Virus record (IMG/VR): IMGVR_UViG_2917413769_000002
Coordinates: 1-41,543 of that record
Length of the DNA stretch: 41,543 nucleotides
Reading direction: 5' to 3' (one strand)
Source of the DNA: a virus
Taxonomy: Duplodnaviria; Heunggongvirae; Uroviricota; Caudoviricetes
Of the stretch, positions 24,863-40,700 are shown one piece after another. Numbering within the stretch: position 1 is the stretch's first letter; each line of letters opens with the position of its first letter. Position numbers and translations under genes: made by a program. The notes under the pieces are model-generated. The model searched no databases. It was not told where the DNA came from and worked only from the letters and a program-made list of their open reading frames with translations.

Positions 24863-25477
24863 TTAAATTCTGCGGAAAGCGTACGAAGCGACGCCCTTAC
24901 GCCCTAACTGGCATTCGATTGTGTTTTGCTCTGCGCAGGTGAAGCCCTGCTCTGCAAACCAGCGCCTGATACCTTCATCAGTGAAATACCAGATGTGCTC
25001 GTTCTTTCTGAAATGATGGGAGCGGAGAATGTCTCCGGCATCAGTGAAAATCGGGATCGACACGAAAACGTATTCACTGGCCTGCTGTACCGCCAGCTCC
25101 GGCTCGTCGATGTGTTCCAGTACATCCCACATCGTCAGTGCTCGCCACTTATTGGCGTAGAGATCTGCGAATGCGCCCCGCTCGTTCAGCCAGGCAATAC
25201 CGGCCGGATTAACGTCATACCCAAGCGTTCCCGGTCGGATAGAGACGAACTGACCGGCACCGATACCAACGTCGAGAACAGGGCCGTGAAAATGGCGATC
25301 CACCAGCTCAATACGGGATTGCGTTAAAGCTCTGCCCGTTTCGGTGTCAGCCAGCTGCTGATACTTTGCGAAATACTGCTCGTCATACGGGCGTGATGCC
25401 GGAACGGGGTAACGTCCGATCCCCAGCTCCGGTAAAAATACCAGCCCGCTTTCCAGTTCCTGATAAAACGACTTCAT
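24863..25477 (-). CDS. class I SAM-dependent methyltransferase
   Basis: motif I VLDVGIGAGQF and acidic motif II ...DVLEHIDEPE; ATG 25477 with GAGG upstream; 95-nt overlap with the upstream GT9-like ORF. Confidence 0.7.
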   Translation of the reverse strand: MKSFYQELESGLVFLPELGIGRYPVPASRPYDEQYFAKYQQLADTETGRALTQSRIELVDRHFHGPVLDVGIGAGQFVSIRPGTLGYDVNPAGIAWLNERGAFADLYANKWRALTMWDVLEHIDEPELAVQQASEYVFVSIPIFTDAGDILRSHHFRKNEHIWYFTDEGIRRWFAEQGFTCAEQNTIECQLGRKGVASYAFRRI

Positions 25478-26321
25478 GGAGCCAGGCCTCGAATTTATCG
25501 GAGAAATTTGAAATCCGCTTGTCGCAGTGGTGATCCCATGCTTCACAGCGGCAGTAATTGTCGGGAATTGCCCAGCCAACACGAGAAAGGTCCATCGCCG
25601 GATCGGTTACGATTTCCGGGGCGTTGTGGCCGCCCCGCCCACCAGCAACAACATAGACAGGCGTTCTGTAGGCGATGGCAGCAGGAAGCGCCCAGCCAAC
25701 CGGCGAAACCACTACGGCAGCGTGTTCAATCAGGCGCATCAGCGATTTAAAATTGAGCTGGCCGGAGTGCAGCCGCAGATCCGCTTCGGGAAGTTCGCCG
25801 ACCGCCCACTCTTCCCCCTCCTGCAGGTCAGCCACGCTGATCACACAGAAATGTTTTCGCAGTAACCGGGAGGCCTGCAGCAGATAATCAGGATCAGGGT
25901 TGCGAGAGTCGCTACGCCACTCAGATCGCACTGTTGCCGGGCGGATCACCGCAATCGGCTTTTGGTGGGTAAATTCCGCCGGGCCGAAGGAAGGCAGATC
26001 CAGCGCTGCTGGCTCTACGCCGAACTGCTGGCGCATAGCGTCAAAAATTGAGCCGCGCCGCAGGTGCTGTGGCCCGTAGAAAATGCGCTTTGTCTGGCGC
26101 ATATCCGGTGGCTGCTGGAAAGCGGCTTGCGTCCGGTATTCGTTCTTGCGTTGCGTTCGGAGCGTTGTAAAGCTACGAACGGGCAGAACGGGTAAATCTT
26201 CGTAGATTTCAGGCCAGGCGGTTTTGATGTAACTCCCCGGCGGTAACTGCTTTACGAAAGCCCGCTGGTAGATACTGTCACCCATGCCCAGCATGCCATC
26301 GATAAAAAGAGGAACGTTCAA
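25383..26321 (-). CDS. GT9-family glycosyltransferase-like protein (heptosyltransferase fold)
   Basis: N-terminal ...LFIDGMLGMGDSIYQ... and C-terminal ...VVSPVGWALPAAIAYRTPVYVVAGG... resemble WaaC/WaaF-type heptosyltransferases as recalled; TTG start coupled to upstream stop. Confidence 0.6.
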   Translation of the reverse strand: MNVPLFIDGMLGMGDSIYQRAFVKQLPPGSYIKTAWPEIYEDLPVLPVRSFTTLRTQRKNEYRTQAAFQQPPDMRQTKRIFYGPQHLRRGSIFDAMRQQFGVEPAALDLPSFGPAEFTHQKPIAVIRPATVRSEWRSDSRNPDPDYLLQASRLLRKHFCVISVADLQEGEEWAVGELPEADLRLHSGQLNFKSLMRLIEHAAVVVSPVGWALPAAIAYRTPVYVVAGGRGGHNAPEIVTDPAMDLSRVGWAIPDNYCRCEAWDHHCDKRISNFSDKFEAWLHEVVLSGTGKRAGIFTGAGDRTLPRSGITPV

Positions 26322-26869
26322 AGTGCGACCTCGCGAAGCGCCTCATTGAGGCTGAGCCGCCGGAAGCACTTCAGCGCAGTCTGGCGGCTGCTGTTAATGA
26401 TGTTGACCTTCCCGGCCAGCGCTCTGGCTGTACTGGCGAACTCGCCGCGCCACCGTTCGGCATTTTCTGCCGTTGGGTTATCGAGCCCAACATGATCACC
26501 ATGCCAGTGACTGCCATCAGCGACAGAACAGTCGAACCCGAGCAGAATGATATTTTTCGCGCCCAGGCTGGCGGCGAACAGAATTGATCGCTGACCTGAG
26601 TTGAACGCCCAGCGCGTGTCCGTATCGAAAAGGTGCAGGCCGTAGCGCGTGTGTGCCCGATAATTGCAGGTCCACAGGGCAGCCGAGGGAGGCAGAACGC
26701 CAATATTTGCATCCCACCAGCGAAGATCACCCGCGTAAATGTGCGAGCAACCCGGTACCGCGTGCCAGGACGAATTGACCGCTATGACGGGAAAGCCCGT
26801 GCTGATAGCCGTCTGACAATCGTCGTGAGTGAGGGATGGACCGGAAGCGCAGACGATCGCCGTGTTCAT
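26318..26869 (-). CDS. Rossmann-like putative glycosyltransferase (CstII / DUF115-like)
   Basis: ATG 26869 with GGTGA upstream; N-terminus MNTAIVCASGPSL...VIAVNSSW mirrors the GxGPSL...N motif of CstII-type sialyltransferases (from memory). Confidence 0.45.
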   Translation of the reverse strand: MNTAIVCASGPSLTHDDCQTAISTGFPVIAVNSSWHAVPGCSHIYAGDLRWWDANIGVLPPSAALWTCNYRAHTRYGLHLFDTDTRWAFNSGQRSILFAASLGAKNIILLGFDCSVADGSHWHGDHVGLDNPTAENAERWRGEFASTARALAGKVNIINSSRQTALKCFRRLSLNEALREVAL

Positions 26870-26967
26870 ACGAGAATCACCGTTTGATATTGAGCCGAAT
26901 AGCCCTTGCAATTGGCTCACACACTGAGCCGAATTTCCGAATGGCTGCCGCTGTCACCCGCATGGTG

Positions 26968-27219
26968 TCACGATTGCGAAATCACCACTGTTACAGCATT
27001 GGTGGTGATCGTATTCTGCCCGTCGCCGCACTTATCACAGGTGCTATCGTGACGCTCCATTGCAATAAACGCGGCGGCTATGCAACGCCCCAAATATTCA
27101 AAATCACTCACTCCCGAGTTAGCCCGAGCCACAATAAGCTGGCCCAGTGCGATTTTTGCCTGTGAGCGGGATTCAGAAGATAATTCGTTAAATTGCATAA
27201 CTGGCTCCAGAAACGACAA
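26968..27219 (-). CDS. hypothetical protein
   Basis: 83-aa ORF between Q and the enzyme cluster; no recognisable motif. Confidence 0.35.
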   Translation of the reverse strand: MSFLEPVMQFNELSSESRSQAKIALGQLIVARANSGVSDFEYLGRCIAAAFIAMERHDSTCDKCGDGQNTITTNAVTVVISQS

Positions 27220-27290: not shown

Positions 27291-27711
27291 CTAAAAAATG
27301 CGGACCGCACTAGCACTTTTTTGATTATTTTGAATGCTCACTACGGCGTCCATTTCCAGGCGAACATCCAGCATCGACAGGCAGCCTTCAATGAATCCCT
27401 CGGCAAGCAGCATCTCTATGCGTATCTGCTTTTCGCTTTTCTTCCTGCGCTTCGCCATCTGCCGTTTTGAATACCGGAGAATATAATGCCCGACCAGCAA
27501 GTGATAATCGTATGGGCATTTTTTTTATCAGGCGTGCCATGCAGCCCTCGATAATCAGCCCATCGTCGTCGGTACACATGATCCGCGTTTTGCTGGTTTG
27601 CGGAAGCAGCCCCTTAAAACCAGCAGCGATGGAAGAATAATCAATATTGCATGAATCGCTTGCCGCCCACGCGCCCCACATATCAAGAACCTTTTGCATA
27701 TCACGCATCAT
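27291..27711 (-). CDS. late antiterminator Q (QuuD-type), interrupted by an apparent frameshift (ORFs 27388-27711 and 27291-27500)
   Basis: N-terminal ORF MMRDMQKVLDMWGAWAA...IDYSSIAAGFKGLLP...CTDDDGL is Q-like as recalled; C-terminal continuation ...SMLDVRLEMD... in another frame; T8 run at 27519-27526 is the most likely shift site. Confidence 0.6.
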
Positions 27712-35484: not shown

Positions 35485-35667
35485 ATGAGTACAGACTTCA
35501 TGACAGAACAAGAGGTTTCTGAGTTGCTTCAGAAAAAAAGAACAGCTTTATATAACCTCAGAAAAAAACATGGTTTCCCTGAGCCAGTCCTCACCCACCC
35601 AGCGAGATATAGCCGCAAAGCCGTGGAAAACTGGATCAGTGCAGGCGGAGTTAACCGAGCTGTTTAA
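35485..35667 (+). CDS. AlpA / excisionase-family HTH protein
   Basis: 60-aa ORF; position next to and convergent with the integrase. Confidence 0.6.
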   Translation: MSTDFMTEQEVSELLQKKRTALYNLRKKHGFPEPVLTHPARYSRKAVENWISAGGVNRAV

Positions 35668-36820
35668 CGTGCCAGAGGATTTTATCAGCATACAGCTCGT
35701 AAGCTGCTTTCTGCTCAGGTAACCAGTCGTGTTTATTATACACGGCCATCACCCCGCCAAGCTCGTGCCCCAGCATCTTTTCGGTGACATGGGGCATCAC
35801 CCCTTCTGCAGATAAATTCGTTACCAACGAACGGCGGAAATCATGCGTTCGCCACTCCGGGATATCGATTTTACCTCTCAATTTTTTCATATAGAGATTT
35901 GACGACGAACGGTCTATAGCGCGGTCAAGCGTCTGTCCGGGAAACAGCACAGAGTTCCCACTATTCAGCAGCCGCTCAACATAGGGTTTAACCTGGTCAA
36001 AGATAGGCCGTCGGATGACATTTCCCATCTTGGAATGCTCAGATGGAGTCGTCCAGATCAGATCATCCATATTGAACTCATCCGGCGTTGAAAGCCGCAG
36101 CTCAGATAAGCGTGGTCCCCAGAGCAATAGCAGCTGGTGCAGCACTTTATTGGAGGAGACGATCTTGTTATTTTCCAGTGCCAGCCAAACCTTCGCCAGT
36201 TCGGTGTATGTTAACACCCGCTCACCGACGTCAGGCTTCTTGCCTATGGTTTTCACACTTAACTTCATCAGCTCGCATGACGGAACCAACTGCCGGCTGA
36301 TGCACCAGTTAATTACCGAGCGTAGCTGTAACAGCAGAACGCGCGCTTTCTTTTTGTTCAGGCTTTCCTGTTTATCGAAAAAACGCACCCATGCAGAAAC
36401 CGGTACATTCGCCACTGGCGCATCTTCAAATTGTGTGTACATCGTGTTGTACACGACCGATTTATAAAGCGTCTGGGTGTTGGGCTTCAGACCGGATGCA
36501 TACTTATCCCACCACTGATCAAGGCATTCTTTGAGTGTCAGCTCGCCATCTTCACGGGCAAAATAATTTTTGGGGTTCACACCCTTCGTGTACAATGCGC
36601 GCATCTCACCGACGATAACCCTAGCGTCCTTGAGGGATGTCGAAGGATAGCGGCCAACCGTCAGGCGCACTGGTTTACCGTTCCATCGATAACGATACTG
36701 AAAAGTGATTGTGCCAGTTGGCGTGATCCGGGCACTGAGACCATCACCATCGGTGATTTCTGGTGCCGCAGAATACGGTTTACCGTTGATGCTCCGTAGT
36801 TTAGTGTCGCTGAGTGCCAA
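35651..36820 (-). CDS. int: P4-type tyrosine integrase
   Basis: C-terminal catalytic region ...WRTHDFRRS...GHELGGVMAVYNKH...; N-terminal ALSDTKLRSI...KPY... block typical of P4-family integrases; likely TTG start at 36820 (ORF track extends to 36931). Confidence 0.8.
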   Translation of the reverse strand: MALSDTKLRSINGKPYSAAPEITDGDGLSARITPTGTITFQYRYRWNGKPVRLTVGRYPSTSLKDARVIVGEMRALYTKGVNPKNYFAREDGELTLKECLDQWWDKYASGLKPNTQTLYKSVVYNTMYTQFEDAPVANVPVSAWVRFFDKQESLNKKKARVLLLQLRSVINWCISRQLVPSCELMKLSVKTIGKKPDVGERVLTYTELAKVWLALENNKIVSSNKVLHQLLLLWGPRLSELRLSTPDEFNMDDLIWTTPSEHSKMGNVIRRPIFDQVKPYVERLLNSGNSVLFPGQTLDRAIDRSSSNLYMKKLRGKIDIPEWRTHDFRRSLVTNLSAEGVMPHVTEKMLGHELGGVMAVYNKHDWLPEQKAAYELYADKILWHVKQLG

Positions 36821-37015
36821 TGCGCTATATCCTGTACACAAGGGTTTCAGGCATTCTGTACTCAATCTGTACTCAATGGCAAGTGAACGAACGCAAATAT
36901 CAGCATAAACAAGCTGGTAAATGATGAACAAAGACGCACTTACATCTTGATGTCAAAGCAGTAAAGGCGGTAGAATCAGCATCACGGTGAACAACCAAAA
37001 ACATCGCCGATCAAT

Positions 37016-37250: not shown

Positions 37251-37802
37251 ATGCTCACCGTTAAGCAGATTGAAGCAGCAAAGCCGAAAGAAAAACCATA
37301 CCGCCTTCTCGATGGTAATGGCCTGTACCTTTATGTTCCTGTATCCGGGAAAAAGGTATGGCAGCTTCGCTACAAGATTGACGGTAAGGAGAAAATCCTG
37401 ACCGTCGGAAAATATCCGCTTATGACTTTGCAAGAGGCAAGGGATAAGGCATGGACCGCGAGGAAAGATATCTCGGTTGGCATAGATCCGGTAAAGGCGA
37501 AAAAGGCTTCGTATAACAACAATTCCTTTAGTGCGATTTACAAGGAATGGTACGAGCATAAGAGGCAAGTATGGTCAGTCGGCTATGCGACTGAACTTGC
37601 CAAAATGTTTGACGACGACATTTTACCTATCATCGGCGGTCTTGAAATTCAGGATATTGAGCCGATGCAACTTCTTGAAGTAATCCGCAGATTTGAAGAT
37701 CGCGGTGCAATGGAGCGAGCCAACCTTACTATATCTCGAATAGCACAAAGCCTTGCAATCCAGTGCAAAGCTTTGTGTGTCTCAGTTTTGTCTTACGCTT
37801 AA
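37251..37802 (+). pseudogene. truncated P4-type (IntS-like) integrase, N-terminal ~180 aa only
   Basis: starts 161 nt downstream of the tRNA 3' end in the same orientation; N-terminal KPYRLLDGNGLYLYV...GKK.W block; ends where AT-rich DNA begins. Confidence 0.7.
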
Positions 37803-37822
37803 ACGTATCTTTTTATTTAGAA

Positions 37823-38849
37823 TTATTTGATGCATTTAATTTTAGATTTTCTTTTCAAAATTAAGCCGCATGGAATCTCAATATATTTATAGCTTAAGTA
37901 TGAAGACAGAAGAATAAGTACTATAATTGGTACAACCATCAATAATTTATCTAACATATAGATATCACATAGCTTATTTATTATACATATAATGATCACA
38001 TGCGAAAGATATGTCGAGTATGACCAATCTCCAAGTTTAGATGCAATTCTTGATATAGTGCTATTGCCAATATTGTTTTCAAGACATAAAGCGGAAACAA
38101 TTAAAGCAGCGCAAGGGATTCCAATTTGGAGAAGTCTTTTTGATTCATTGCTAAAAAATATACTTATCAGTGATAATACGGATATTGTTAGTGCAGTTTT
38201 AACACCGATATTTCTGAATAGCCCATTATTATAACATATAGCTATTACCCCCCCCCATAACAAACTCAAACAACAGTTCATCATTATAGAAAAGAAATAC
38301 AGTAGACTCATTATTGCCAAGCCATGAAAACAAATTCATTACAACAAGAGGAATTAGAATACAGCAAATTTTTTTGTTGTTTTCAGGGAATAACAGAGAA
38401 ATAAATACGCACGTATAAAATAGCATTTCAAAATTAAGAGTCCACCCAACCGTTAGGGTTGGAATATACCAACCTATCTGTTGATTCATTACCGGAATAA
38501 AAGCAAGGCTTTTTAATACATTATTTAATCCAATCTCAGCAAACGGAATAACTCCGTGAAAATTGTATGATATTACCACTACCAGCAATGTGTAGAACCA
38601 ATATGCAGGAATAATTCTTACCATCCTATTGAGAGCAAATGACGTAGGTGTAATATTATTTTTCGATATTGACTTATAAATAATAAAGCCACTTATGATA
38701 AAAAACATATCGACACCATTGCCAGCCTTAAGTGCAATAGTGTGCATCAATTTGGATGATGCAGACCATTGAAACATGACTTGAGAAATATGATGATAAA
38801 CAACTGCCCAAGCAGCAAGTGCTCTTAAGATTTGTATTGACTTAATCAC
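37823..38849 (-). pseudogene. acyltransferase-3 family membrane protein (O-antigen acetylase-like), split by a frameshift at a G9 tract
   Basis: ORFs 38229-38849 and 37823-38320 overlap at a C9 run (38247-38255, plus strand); G8 would fuse them into a ~350-aa acyltransferase_3-like protein; strongly AT-rich region. Confidence 0.65.
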
Positions 38850-39478
38850 GGATAAATCCTAATGTTTTTTCATGCATTTTATACTATACCGATCGAAAGT
38901 CCAGTTCTCTTTTCCCATATCATACTATTCGCAATATACGGTGTAAAAATATGATAAACATCAACTTCCTTATTAATGTGTTAATAAACCATTTTTGTTA
39001 AATGCTTTCTATGCCCAATAAGAATCAATACTATAAGTTATAGAACCTTTTATTGTGGCATCAACATTGACATCGCTTTTATGTACAGGATCACAATCAG
39101 GGTTGTTAAATTTGTAAAAATCAATGTAATCATTTCCGCGATCGATGGCTCGCCGTAAACACTTGCCACCCAGTTGTCAAACCAAAAGTTATGGAAATAA
39201 CGCCAGATACTTGGTTTGCGGCTTTGTGCGGTTGGTTTCTCATTCTCATTTAACCTGATTGTTCTGCGAATACGTTCAGTCTTATAATAAACTCTATAGT
39301 AACCAAACTTCCATTTTGATGATATTTAACATCCCTAGCTAAAAGTCCAATACCATTTGTCGAATCACCAAATGTTATCGTAATCTCACCATCAATAGAG
39401 CGTCGTTCTCTTAATGACTCTAGTTGCAAGGCATTCTGAACAGATGTAATTCATGCTGCATAGATATTAGCCGAAGTG

Positions 39479-39733
39479 TTATATACAATAGTTGACCCTG
39501 CCAATAGTTAACCCTGCAGCGTCATCTGTACAGCCAATTAGCGGCATTCCCGTGCCAAATTTACCGCCATTTATGACAATATGATTACCTGGGCCATGTA
39601 TGTAGAAGTTCCATGAATATGATTTCCCCCACGAAAGCATTGGATTATTAAAAGTTACGTAATTATTATCTTTAACAGAAACAATCTGATCCCCCCCATC
39701 TTTTGGTATGCATATATACCCAATAAACATCAA
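39479..39733 (-). CDS. hypothetical protein, possibly a gene remnant
   Basis: 84-aa ORF in AT-rich DNA between the acyltransferase gene and the IS630-family remnant. Confidence 0.25.
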   Translation of the reverse strand: MMFIGYICIPKDGGDQIVSVKDNNYVTFNNPMLSWGKSYSWNFYIHGPGNHIVINGGKFGTGMPLIGCTDDAAGLTIGRVNYCI

Positions 39734-39763
39734 GATGTGGGTGTGAACACCCGAAAGTGATCA

Positions 39764-40700
39764 TTAATTCTGGATGTCAGCCGCTATATCCGGCAGCGTC
39801 TGGTTAAAAAAGACAGATATTGCGTCCCTGAACACTCGCGTACTGCTGAAGTAGCGATTATTCCGCGCATGTTCGTTCATTAATTTCCACATTCTTTCTA
39901 TCGGATTCAGGTTTGGACTGTAAGGGGGAAGGTAATGCAGCCTGATATTTACCACTTCCGCCCAGTCTTTCACTAACTGTGAACGGTGATAACCTGCTCC
40001 ATCCAGAATAACGTGGATTTTCTGGTTATAATCAGGATAAACCTTTCGTATATCATTGAAAAAACGGTATACATTATATTCATTAATGGTTTTATATTCG
40101 CAGATTAGCGGTGACGTCAGTGCTTTCAGATTTAGCGCCCCATGATATTCAGGCGTGTGCGGCTGCCTGTTGTTTTTACTGCTTTTTTCTGGCCTTTGCG
40201 TATCCAGCCATAGCTGATTTTAGTGGCCTGAGTCGGATGGACTCCATCAATAAAAAGAATCGGTTCATCACCCACAGTTGTTTTCAGTTCCACATAATAT
40301 TCAATGAATTGCCTTTGTTTCTCTTCACAGAATTTATGGGGAACGCCTGACGGTTTTTGTAGGTGAAACCATTACAATGCAGCCACTTATTCATCCCCAG
40401 AATGCTGAAAATGATGTTCCATGTCCGGGTGACAAACGCAATAACATCGCGGGTACGGTGAAATAAATTATCGGATAACTGACTGATAAAAAGGGCCATT
40501 TGTTCAGCTCTGAGTTTGCGGCCTGAGCCGCCGTTTTCGGCCTTCAGTTTCCCTTTATTCAGGAATTCACTGATATGGTGATCAATCGTTGTCTAATGTA
40601 GGCGTAAAGCCTGAGCAATCATGGCAGAACTCCAGCCTTCGGAGGCCAGAAGAATAGCTTAAATACGAGCTCTGACTCGCCCGTCACGGCTGGAATCATG
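39764..40700 (-). mobile_element. IS630-family transposase gene, frameshifted
   Basis: C-terminal ORF has the DDE region ...HVILDGAGYH... and the family signature YLPPYSPNLNPIE; upstream parts in other frames (…YGWIRKG…NIMG / ALNL…); two frame breaks at short homopolymers (~40138-40141 and ~40354-40358); element ends not defined. Confidence 0.65.

Follow-up and report, generated by a model that had tools for sequence, protein, structure and literature searches.

A conserved trio of glycosyltransferase-fold and methyltransferase genes in phage late operons, and its possible role in modifying virion components

The viral record IMGVR_UViG_2917413769_000002 (Duplodnaviria; Heunggongvirae; Uroviricota; Caudoviricetes), analysed over its whole stretch of 41,543 nucleotides (hereafter the window), carries on its minus strand, between a Q-family antiterminator gene and the lysis genes, three enzyme genes that form a conserved unit in a wide range of phages and prophages. 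In the order of transcription, they code for a DUF115/Maf-like protein of sialyltransferase fold (26920-26318, 200 aa), a GT-B glycosyltransferase-like protein with a GT9 fold (26321-25383, 312 aa), and a class I S-adenosylmethionine (SAM) methyltransferase (25582-24863, 239 aa); they are referred to below as the trio. The initial annotation had placed four co-directional open reading frames (ORFs) in this interval, the additional one being an 83-aa ORF at 27219-26968, and their coordinates, number and shared orientation were confirmed, as was the identity of the flanking genes, Q by PF06530 and the holin by phrog_1350. All four are real genes and not chance ORFs, since they match PHROG families with E-values of 1e-26 for the 83-aa ORF (phrog_26625), 1e-47 for the DUF115-like gene, 5e-111 for the GT9-like gene, and 2e-80 for the methyltransferase gene (phrog_6564), which also matches PF13489.

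The tight coupling first described for all four genes holds for the trio, and not for the 83-aa ORF. The stop codon of the DUF115-like gene overlaps the TTG start of the GT9-like gene (TTGA), and the latter shares 95 nt (25383-25477) with the methyltransferase gene, whose true start is probably M36 at 25477 (product of 204 aa), as annotated by PGAP in homologues. The methyltransferase N-terminus encoded in this overlap is strongly conserved (PELGIGxYPVP...PYD). The GT9-like protein ends in a disordered tail whose seeming conservation had suggested an acceptor peptide; this idea was rejected, as the tail represents the other reading frame of this methyltransferase N-terminus. Between the 83-aa ORF and the trio lie 48-98 nt, and the ORF gave no match in Pfam, NCBIfam or PADLOC. 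Its PHROG match begins at residue 8, and its start is therefore probably M8 at 27198, predicting a product of 76 aa. Because it lies upstream of the trio in only 2 of the 78 loci described below (L035 and L041), it is not part of the conserved unit and is not to be counted in the cluster: the unit consists of the enzyme trio only.

To define the distribution of the trio, relatives of the GT9-like protein were sought by a pattern scan of IMG/VR, and 78 viral loci were fetched for analysis of their context. At least 563 IMG/VR stretches encode such a relative; when clustered at 50% identity, the proteins collected by an exhaustive profile search fall into 863 clusters, and 565 of these have E <1e-30. 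All 78 loci have a complete, co-oriented trio: as far as the available sequence reaches, the DUF115-like gene is directly upstream and the methyltransferase gene directly downstream of the GT9-like gene. Among complete E. coli genomes, 22 of 5,426 contain the trio, with 79-88% nucleotide identity. It is also present in 29 deposited phage records, including all D3-like Pseudomonas phages, PAJU2 and the Enterobacter phage Mulvp2. Three carriers are of jumbo size (265-270 kb), namely, Klebsiella phage Eowyn and Serratia phages KpGz_1 and KpHz_2, and another, BUCT-ZZ01, is a T4-like cyanophage. Jumbo phages and T4-like cyanophages are taken here as strictly lytic, and the function of the trio is thus presumably independent of lysogeny.

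The DUF115-like domain is joined to the GT9-like domain in many polypeptides of about 450-500 aa, a strong sign that the two act jointly. Together with the complete and co-oriented loci and the gene overlaps, these fusions argue that the trio is one functional unit. The GT9-like domain has further fusion partners: canonical PF01075 GT9 domains, a second GT9-like domain in tandem (P0291, P0329), LicD (P0248) and a methyltransferase (P0287). Such partners point to the assembly or decoration of oligosaccharides, and they strengthen the initial proposal that the gene set builds or modifies a glycan. Giant multi-domain relatives also occur, for instance P0291 (1214 aa) and P0329 (983 aa), in which two GT9-like domains are accompanied by a DUF115-like domain and an additional GT9 domain; in others, P0248, P0287 and P0337 among those noted, the GT9-like domain has LicD, a methyltransferase or a middle domain of P-loop-like appearance by eye as its partner. 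From their domain composition, the giant relatives appear to be assembly lines for glycans on one polypeptide. The module is also interrupted by selfish elements: an ORF that is HNH-like by eye only lies between the DUF115-like and GT9-like genes in L083 (9454-10011), and a LAGLIDADG intein separates the canonical GT9 and GT9-like domains of P0312. The individual folds of the trio are known. In the literature searched (DUF115, heptosyltransferase, TibC, virion glycosylation, PAJU2 and PP9W2), no paper describing the trio was found, and the trio, as a conserved late-operon phage module, is there without a described function.

With regard to the proteins themselves, comparison of the 200-aa and 312-aa products and of their family profiles with the sequences of the Protein Data Bank (PDB) gave chance-level matches only (a sugar kinase, SecA, TraM and a DMS monooxygenase); these were uninformative, and fold comparison was thus needed. 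The DUF115-like protein yields a confident AlphaFold model (pLDDT 88). Its true start is probably M18 at 26869, giving a product of 183 aa, because homologues have this length and residues 1-13 are modelled with pLDDT <50. The window protein scores 29.5 bits against PF01973, below the cut-off of 34.6, and aligns with profile positions 140-169 only; among the 120 homologues listed, the majority have a precomputed match to PF01973. It had been described as CstII/DUF115-like on account of a GxGPSL motif, and this description holds: the motif reads CASGPSL, and S26, G27, P28, S29 and L30 are invariant in 82 homologues, as is an HWHGxH cluster. The closest solved structure is Maf (PDB 5mu5), annotated as a flagellin glycosyltransferase, and the model has the fold of the Maf central domain. 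Unlike full-length Maf (632 aa), the window protein, with 183-200 aa, lacks the flanking substrate-binding domains, which have been proposed to bind flagellin, and its gene has no flagellar context. It is, in other words, a minimal Maf/sialyltransferase-fold core of about 183 aa. Similarity to the GT42 enzymes Cst-I and CstII is weaker than that to Maf, and no match to them was found at the sequence level. Since most of the hosts are not known to make CMP-sialic acid, the PHROG label 'alpha-2,3-sialyltransferase' is unlikely to describe the donor of this protein.

The 312-aa protein is modelled with very high confidence (pLDDT 92) apart from its final 23 residues, which are disordered. It gave no match to PF01075 at E <=0.1 or to any other Pfam or NCBIfam family. 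Comparison with hhalign yielded E-values of 0.0017 for WaaF (probability 16%) and 0.3 for WaaC, and a search of the fold database BFVD recovered only remote GT9-like phage proteins. The model nevertheless displays a GT-B fold nearest to GT9 structures, the closest being TibC (PDB 4rap, 12% sequence identity), whose lead over the lipopolysaccharide (LPS) heptosyltransferases is small. G12, G14 and D15 are invariant in 82 sequences and align with SSMGD13 of WaaC and SWVGD13 of WaaF; direct comparison with these E. coli enzymes shows that the N-terminal strand and the GD motif (residues 14-15 here, placed as in WaaC) are kept. D15 is thereby the equivalent of Asp13 in WaaC and WaaF, the known catalytic residue of the motif. 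In contrast, the heptose-binding motif D-[ST]-G-x-x-H is absent, the segment reading VSPVGWALPAAIA with a family consensus of GGVGWxVPA, and the T-x-x-x-K phosphate motif also differs (RPATVRSEW). Because both the profile and the heptose motif fail, the protein has a GT9 fold and belongs to a separate family, and should not be filed as a GT9 heptosyltransferase or as a member of the bacterial autotransporter heptosyltransferases (BAHT). The initial assignment as GT9 heptosyltransferase-like therefore stands at the level of the fold, and so does the statement made with it that no named family fits.

TibC heptosylates autotransporters (eLife 10.7554/eLife.03714), and its comparison with the GT9-like protein reveals several differences. 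The latter lacks the N-terminal beta-barrel (TibC residues 1-97), its first modelled strand (residues 5-8) leading straight into the GD motif, and it is shorter, TibC having iron-finger cysteines up to position 370. An invariant CxC-x4-H-x-C cluster (C257, C259, H264 and C266) in a loop of the C-lobe recalls the iron finger and may represent a metal site, but it is composed of three Cys and one His, whereas TibC uses four Cys, C339, C342, C358 and C370 (eLife 10.7554/eLife.03714). In addition, TibC and Aah, whose characteristic acceptors are serine residues in autotransporter passenger repeats, are encoded in adhesin loci, whereas the gene studied here belongs to a phage late operon with no adjacent autotransporter gene. 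Given the context, a lipid A-Kdo acceptor is also unlikely.

The third enzyme is an ordinary class I SAM methyltransferase, as had been recognised from the sequence. It matches PF13489 with 43.3 bits (cut-off 27), as do all of 10 diverse homologues, and its glycine-rich motif I reads VLDVGIGAGQF, with D69, G71, G73 and G75 invariant. It is weakly similar to UbiG-type O-methyltransferases and does not resemble DNA methylases. The trio proteins have no transmembrane-like segment, and are predicted to be cytoplasmic and soluble.

The genes around the trio are those of a late operon. Transcription runs from a helicase gene (30298-28676) through a toprim primase gene (28679-27708), directly before the Q-family gene, and, beyond the trio, into the holin gene (24819-24499; phrog_1350, E 8e-32), which is the first lysis gene and the downstream boundary of the trio. 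A lysozyme gene (24521-23991) and a spanin-like ORF (23994-23443) follow, all on the minus strand. The 43-nt gap between the methyltransferase stop codon and the holin gene contains a GGAGG ribosome-binding site. The Q-family gene (27711..27291) is split by a frameshift. Its N-terminal part, ORF 27711-27388, matches PF06530 (E 6e-29) over profile positions 1-68 of 118 only, and its C-terminal part lies in ORF 27500-27291, which aligns with the C-terminal half of an intact 125-aa Q from L083. The split occurs at a run of eight A (27527-27520), and one A fewer restores a full-length Q colinear with intact homologues. The frameshift may be a sequencing error in the homopolymer; if genuine, it would inactivate Q and silence the late operon, trio included, in this prophage. 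Downstream of Q and ahead of the next ORF, a consensus scan detected promoter-like hexamers (27274-27247) followed by a hairpin with a 13-bp stem (27246-27217). This stretch, kept in L020, whose Q differs, is a candidate late promoter and terminator region, such an arrangement of hexamers and hairpins being as expected for a Q-controlled late transcript. A second tyrosine recombinase gene (PF00589; 21627-22640, minus strand), distinct from the integrase at 35651-36931, lies between the lysis cassette and the terminase gene. It is 97-98% conserved in many related prophages, and its counterpart in an E. coli relative adjoins a DUF6236 gene. Past the integrase, the GC content falls sharply to 0.32-0.43 (37500-40500), probably marking the boundary of the prophage with host or island DNA.

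Across its carriers, the trio is always co-oriented within late or morphogenesis operons, at no fewer than five positions: from Q to holin, from lysis genes to terminase, after the portal gene, from capsid to connector, and from connector to tail. The antiterminator-trio-holin arrangement of the window is found in 41 of the 78 loci, with three unrelated antiterminator types and three holin types in shuffled combinations. Another 17 of the 78 loci ('class B') have the trio after the lysis genes and before the packaging genes. It lies just upstream of the terminase gene in L091 and L079, directly 3' of the portal gene in L077, and between head and tail genes in L088 and Mulvp2. In PAJU2 and four further loci (L009, L010-L012), it is found between an HK97-type capsid gene and head-tail connector genes, and in the cyanophage BUCT-ZZ01 beside the gp14 neck gene. 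The trio is split in D3, where orf7 (DUF115-like) comes right after the capsid gene, and orf12 and orf13, the two others, after the head-closure gene; orf11 had been considered as the DUF115 homologue of D3 and was discarded, as BLASTP detected no similarity. Translational coupling to structural genes is frequent, and the PAJU2 trio overlaps the adjoining structural genes at its start and at its end. The DUF115-like ORF010 of this phage (L005, AP009624; 1950-2519) bears in the authors' GenBank record, alongside the major tail protein, the label 'structural protein', which was not traced to data.

Genes inserted between Q and holin in lambdoid phages are readily taken for morons. The trio does not carry the regulatory and compositional marks of a moron, namely, its own promoter and terminator and a distinct composition: in the window, a consensus scan, not expression data, revealed no promoter-like site directly upstream of it, i.e. 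between the 83-aa ORF and the trio; its GC content is 0.55-0.59, against 0.49-0.58 in the surrounding prophage; and the overlaps in PAJU2 tie it to structural genes. It does show the other property of morons, being dispensable and variably present among near-identical phages. In a prophage of E. coli Sx181-0-1 (L092, 25241-26956), whose capsid and cement genes are 96.5% identical to those of the window, the trio is missing and a single ORF of 94 aa occupies the space from Q to the two holin genes, indicating that the trio is an optional accessory and not a core assembly factor. The early region of this natural trio-minus comparator differs from that of the window (VapE-type primase).

The best reading of these observations, to which we assign a probability of roughly 40%, is that the trio glycosylates and methylates a virion component in the cytoplasm late in infection. 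The three enzymes would be made at that stage alongside the particle-building and lysis proteins, the GT9-fold and Maf/sialyltransferase-fold enzymes acting as a pair, which in some phages is a single polypeptide. Each transferase would add one sugar from the nucleotide-sugar pool of the host; the GT9-fold enzyme may draw on ADP-heptose or another ADP-sugar as its donor, and the Maf-fold enzyme on a CMP-activated ulosonic acid (Kdo, for example). The methyltransferase would then cap the product. The most likely acceptor would be a particle protein, and progeny would thereby carry a small methylated glycan. It is above all in this acceptor, and also in the enzyme activities, donors and order of action, that the scheme goes beyond the observed gene order, coupling, folds, conserved residues, distribution, late-operon context, dispensability and fusions. 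A particle protein is preferred as the acceptor because expression is tied to morphogenesis in every lineage examined, because carriers taken as lytic demand a function that works outside lysogeny, and because the nearest solved relatives, TibC and Maf, are cytoplasmic protein O-glycosyltransferases. Precedents point in the same direction. In chlorovirus PBCV-1, the A064R protein, with two glycosyltransferase domains and one methyltransferase domain, acts on the capsid glycan, and thus likewise combines virus-encoded glycosyltransferases with a methyltransferase. In mycobacteriophages Che8 and Rita, phage glycosyltransferases make glycans on capsid proteins (summarised in PMC11256854). As proposed for the module described here, sets of virus-encoded glycosyltransferases modify capsid or tail proteins within the cytoplasm in these systems (PMC11256854 for the mycobacteriophages). 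The enzyme families differ, however, the hosts are actinobacterial or algal, and glycosylation has been demonstrated in these systems, whereas it is deduced for the trio.

Several points weigh against a virion target. No acceptor was found, nor is there any one family of structural proteins that accompanies the trio, the particle genes of its carriers coming from unrelated families: the window encodes a contractile tail with a sheath, an E217-like PF09950 capsid protein and a cement protein, whereas the D3-like phages are HK97-type siphoviruses. A carrier-specific C-terminal extension of the capsid protein, as in mycobacteriophages, was looked for in D3-like phages and none was found, the D3 capsid protein having no extra C-terminal extension relative to 62-70% identical proteins of trio-less Vibrio and Burkholderia phages. 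The Sx181-0-1 prophage indicates that particles assemble without the trio. With [GP]-V-G-W-x-x-P at the positions of VDTGLSH in WaaC and NDSGLMH in WaaF, the donor sugar of the GT9-like protein is uncertain, and the DUF115 fold also covers pyrophosphokinases. Finally, among the papers retrieved by literature search, none reports glycosylated particles for a phage with a Gram-negative host.

The cell envelope is the obvious competing target. The initial annotation had proposed a moron in the Q-to-holin slot, involved in lysogenic conversion or LPS masking; in such a scheme, a heptose-like sugar, a Kdo-like sugar and a methyl group would be added to the LPS core or to another lipid-linked glycan at the inner face of the membrane. 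The change would serve conversion or receptor masking in lysogens or, late in infection, would keep progeny from sticking to debris or block superinfection. A GT9 fold is compatible with this scheme, and LicD, which acts on LPS and teichoic acids in bacteria, is one of the fusion partners of the GT9-like domain. The trio is moreover dispensable and located at module junctions like accessory cargo, and genes within lambdoid late operons may have their own promoters, as do bor, lom and stx. Against this, carriers include jumbo phages and a T4-like cyanophage, taken as lytic, and the Q-to-holin interval is only one of at least five late positions. The trio of PAJU2 is translationally coupled to structural genes, and that of the window matches the GC content of the prophage, with hairpins lying between Q and the cluster and no promoter-like site directly upstream in the consensus scan. 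The proteins have no membrane anchor, the heptose-binding motif is not conserved, and the PADLOC scan gave no match. In D3, a carrier of the trio, conversion of the LPS serotype has been attributed to Iap and Wzy-beta (PMC4815439). We therefore regard an envelope target as unlikely, and a small methylated sugar chain on a particle component as more likely than a change of the host surface in lysogens; of the two options in the initial annotation, the second, in which a protein is glycosylated or methylated, agrees better with the evidence.

A protein acceptor could also belong to the host. Candidate targets would include immune sensors, translation factors and the subunits of surface appendages, and the modification would occur late in infection or, were the enzymes packaged and injected like T4 Alt, in the next cell. 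The closest structural relatives indeed modify bacterial proteins (autotransporters for TibC and, by annotation, flagellin for Maf), the genes often lie among head genes, and PAJU2 ORF010 bears the 'structural protein' label. Yet neither a capsid-targeting signal nor a known host target is evident, this label cannot be traced to data, and a target shared by hosts ranging from enterobacteria to cyanobacteria is not obvious, which makes an effector function improbable. The synthesis of a small molecule seems more improbable still. A DUF115-like pyrophosphokinase related to MptE or thiamine pyrophosphokinase would act with the GT-B enzyme and the methyltransferase to elaborate a soluble metabolite that might be a cofactor, inhibitor or signal; the pyrophosphokinases of the DUF115 fold family and the weak UbiG-like character of the methyltransferase speak for it, but the fusions to further glycosyltransferase domains and LicD point to oligosaccharide assembly. 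The least credible of these explanations, in our estimate, is hypermodification of phage DNA, in which the sugars would be added before packaging for restriction evasion. DNA is a substrate common to all carriers, the GT-B fold is shared with T4 beta-glucosyltransferase, and phage glycosyltransferases placing heptose or Kdo on 5-hydroxymethylcytosine are known (bioRxiv 10.1101/2023.12.21.572611). These DNA enzymes, however, resemble T4 beta-glucosyltransferase and not GT9; the methyltransferase is of a small-molecule or O-methyltransferase type and not a DNA methylase; the genes lie in late or structural modules, not in replication modules; and the scanned ORFs of the window include no cytosine methyltransferase, TET-like oxygenase or hydroxymethylase that would provide 5-hydroxymethylcytosine or 5-hydroxymethyluracil. 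A role in a known defence system is not supported either, as the NCBIfam and PADLOC scans gave no matches.

Glycosylation of virus particles is established in chloroviruses, in some archaeal viruses and, recently, in a few mycobacteriophages, in which it blunts antibody recognition. For phages of Gram-negative bacteria, the usual assumption is that their particles are not glycosylated. The trio, as a kind of virus-encoded glycosylation machinery, belongs to a known category, and the function of this module has not been previously described in the literature searched. That it represents the first widespread virion-glycosylation system in phages of Gram-negative bacteria and cyanobacteria is a tentative proposal that we hold to be less likely than not, albeit one with clear consequences. 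If true, these phages would possess a portable three-enzyme cassette that uses the sugar nucleotides of host envelope precursors to place a short, methyl-capped glycan on particle proteins, and that may alter particle stability, adherence to mucus or other surfaces, or recognition by host or animal immunity. The enzymology in itself is unsurprising, whereas a widespread particle-glycosylation cassette in Gram-negative phages would surprise specialists. With the trio present in hundreds of viral contigs, from D3-like Pseudomonas phages and enterobacterial prophages to jumbo phages and a cyanophage, decorated particles would bear on immune clearance in phage therapy and on phage ecology in mucus, and both the PHROG label 'alpha-2,3-sialyltransferase' and annotations as 'hypothetical protein' would need correcting. 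As D3 and PAJU2 are cultivable, the question is directly testable. Whatever the target, the result corrects the default assumption that genes lying between Q and holin are cargo for lysogenic conversion.

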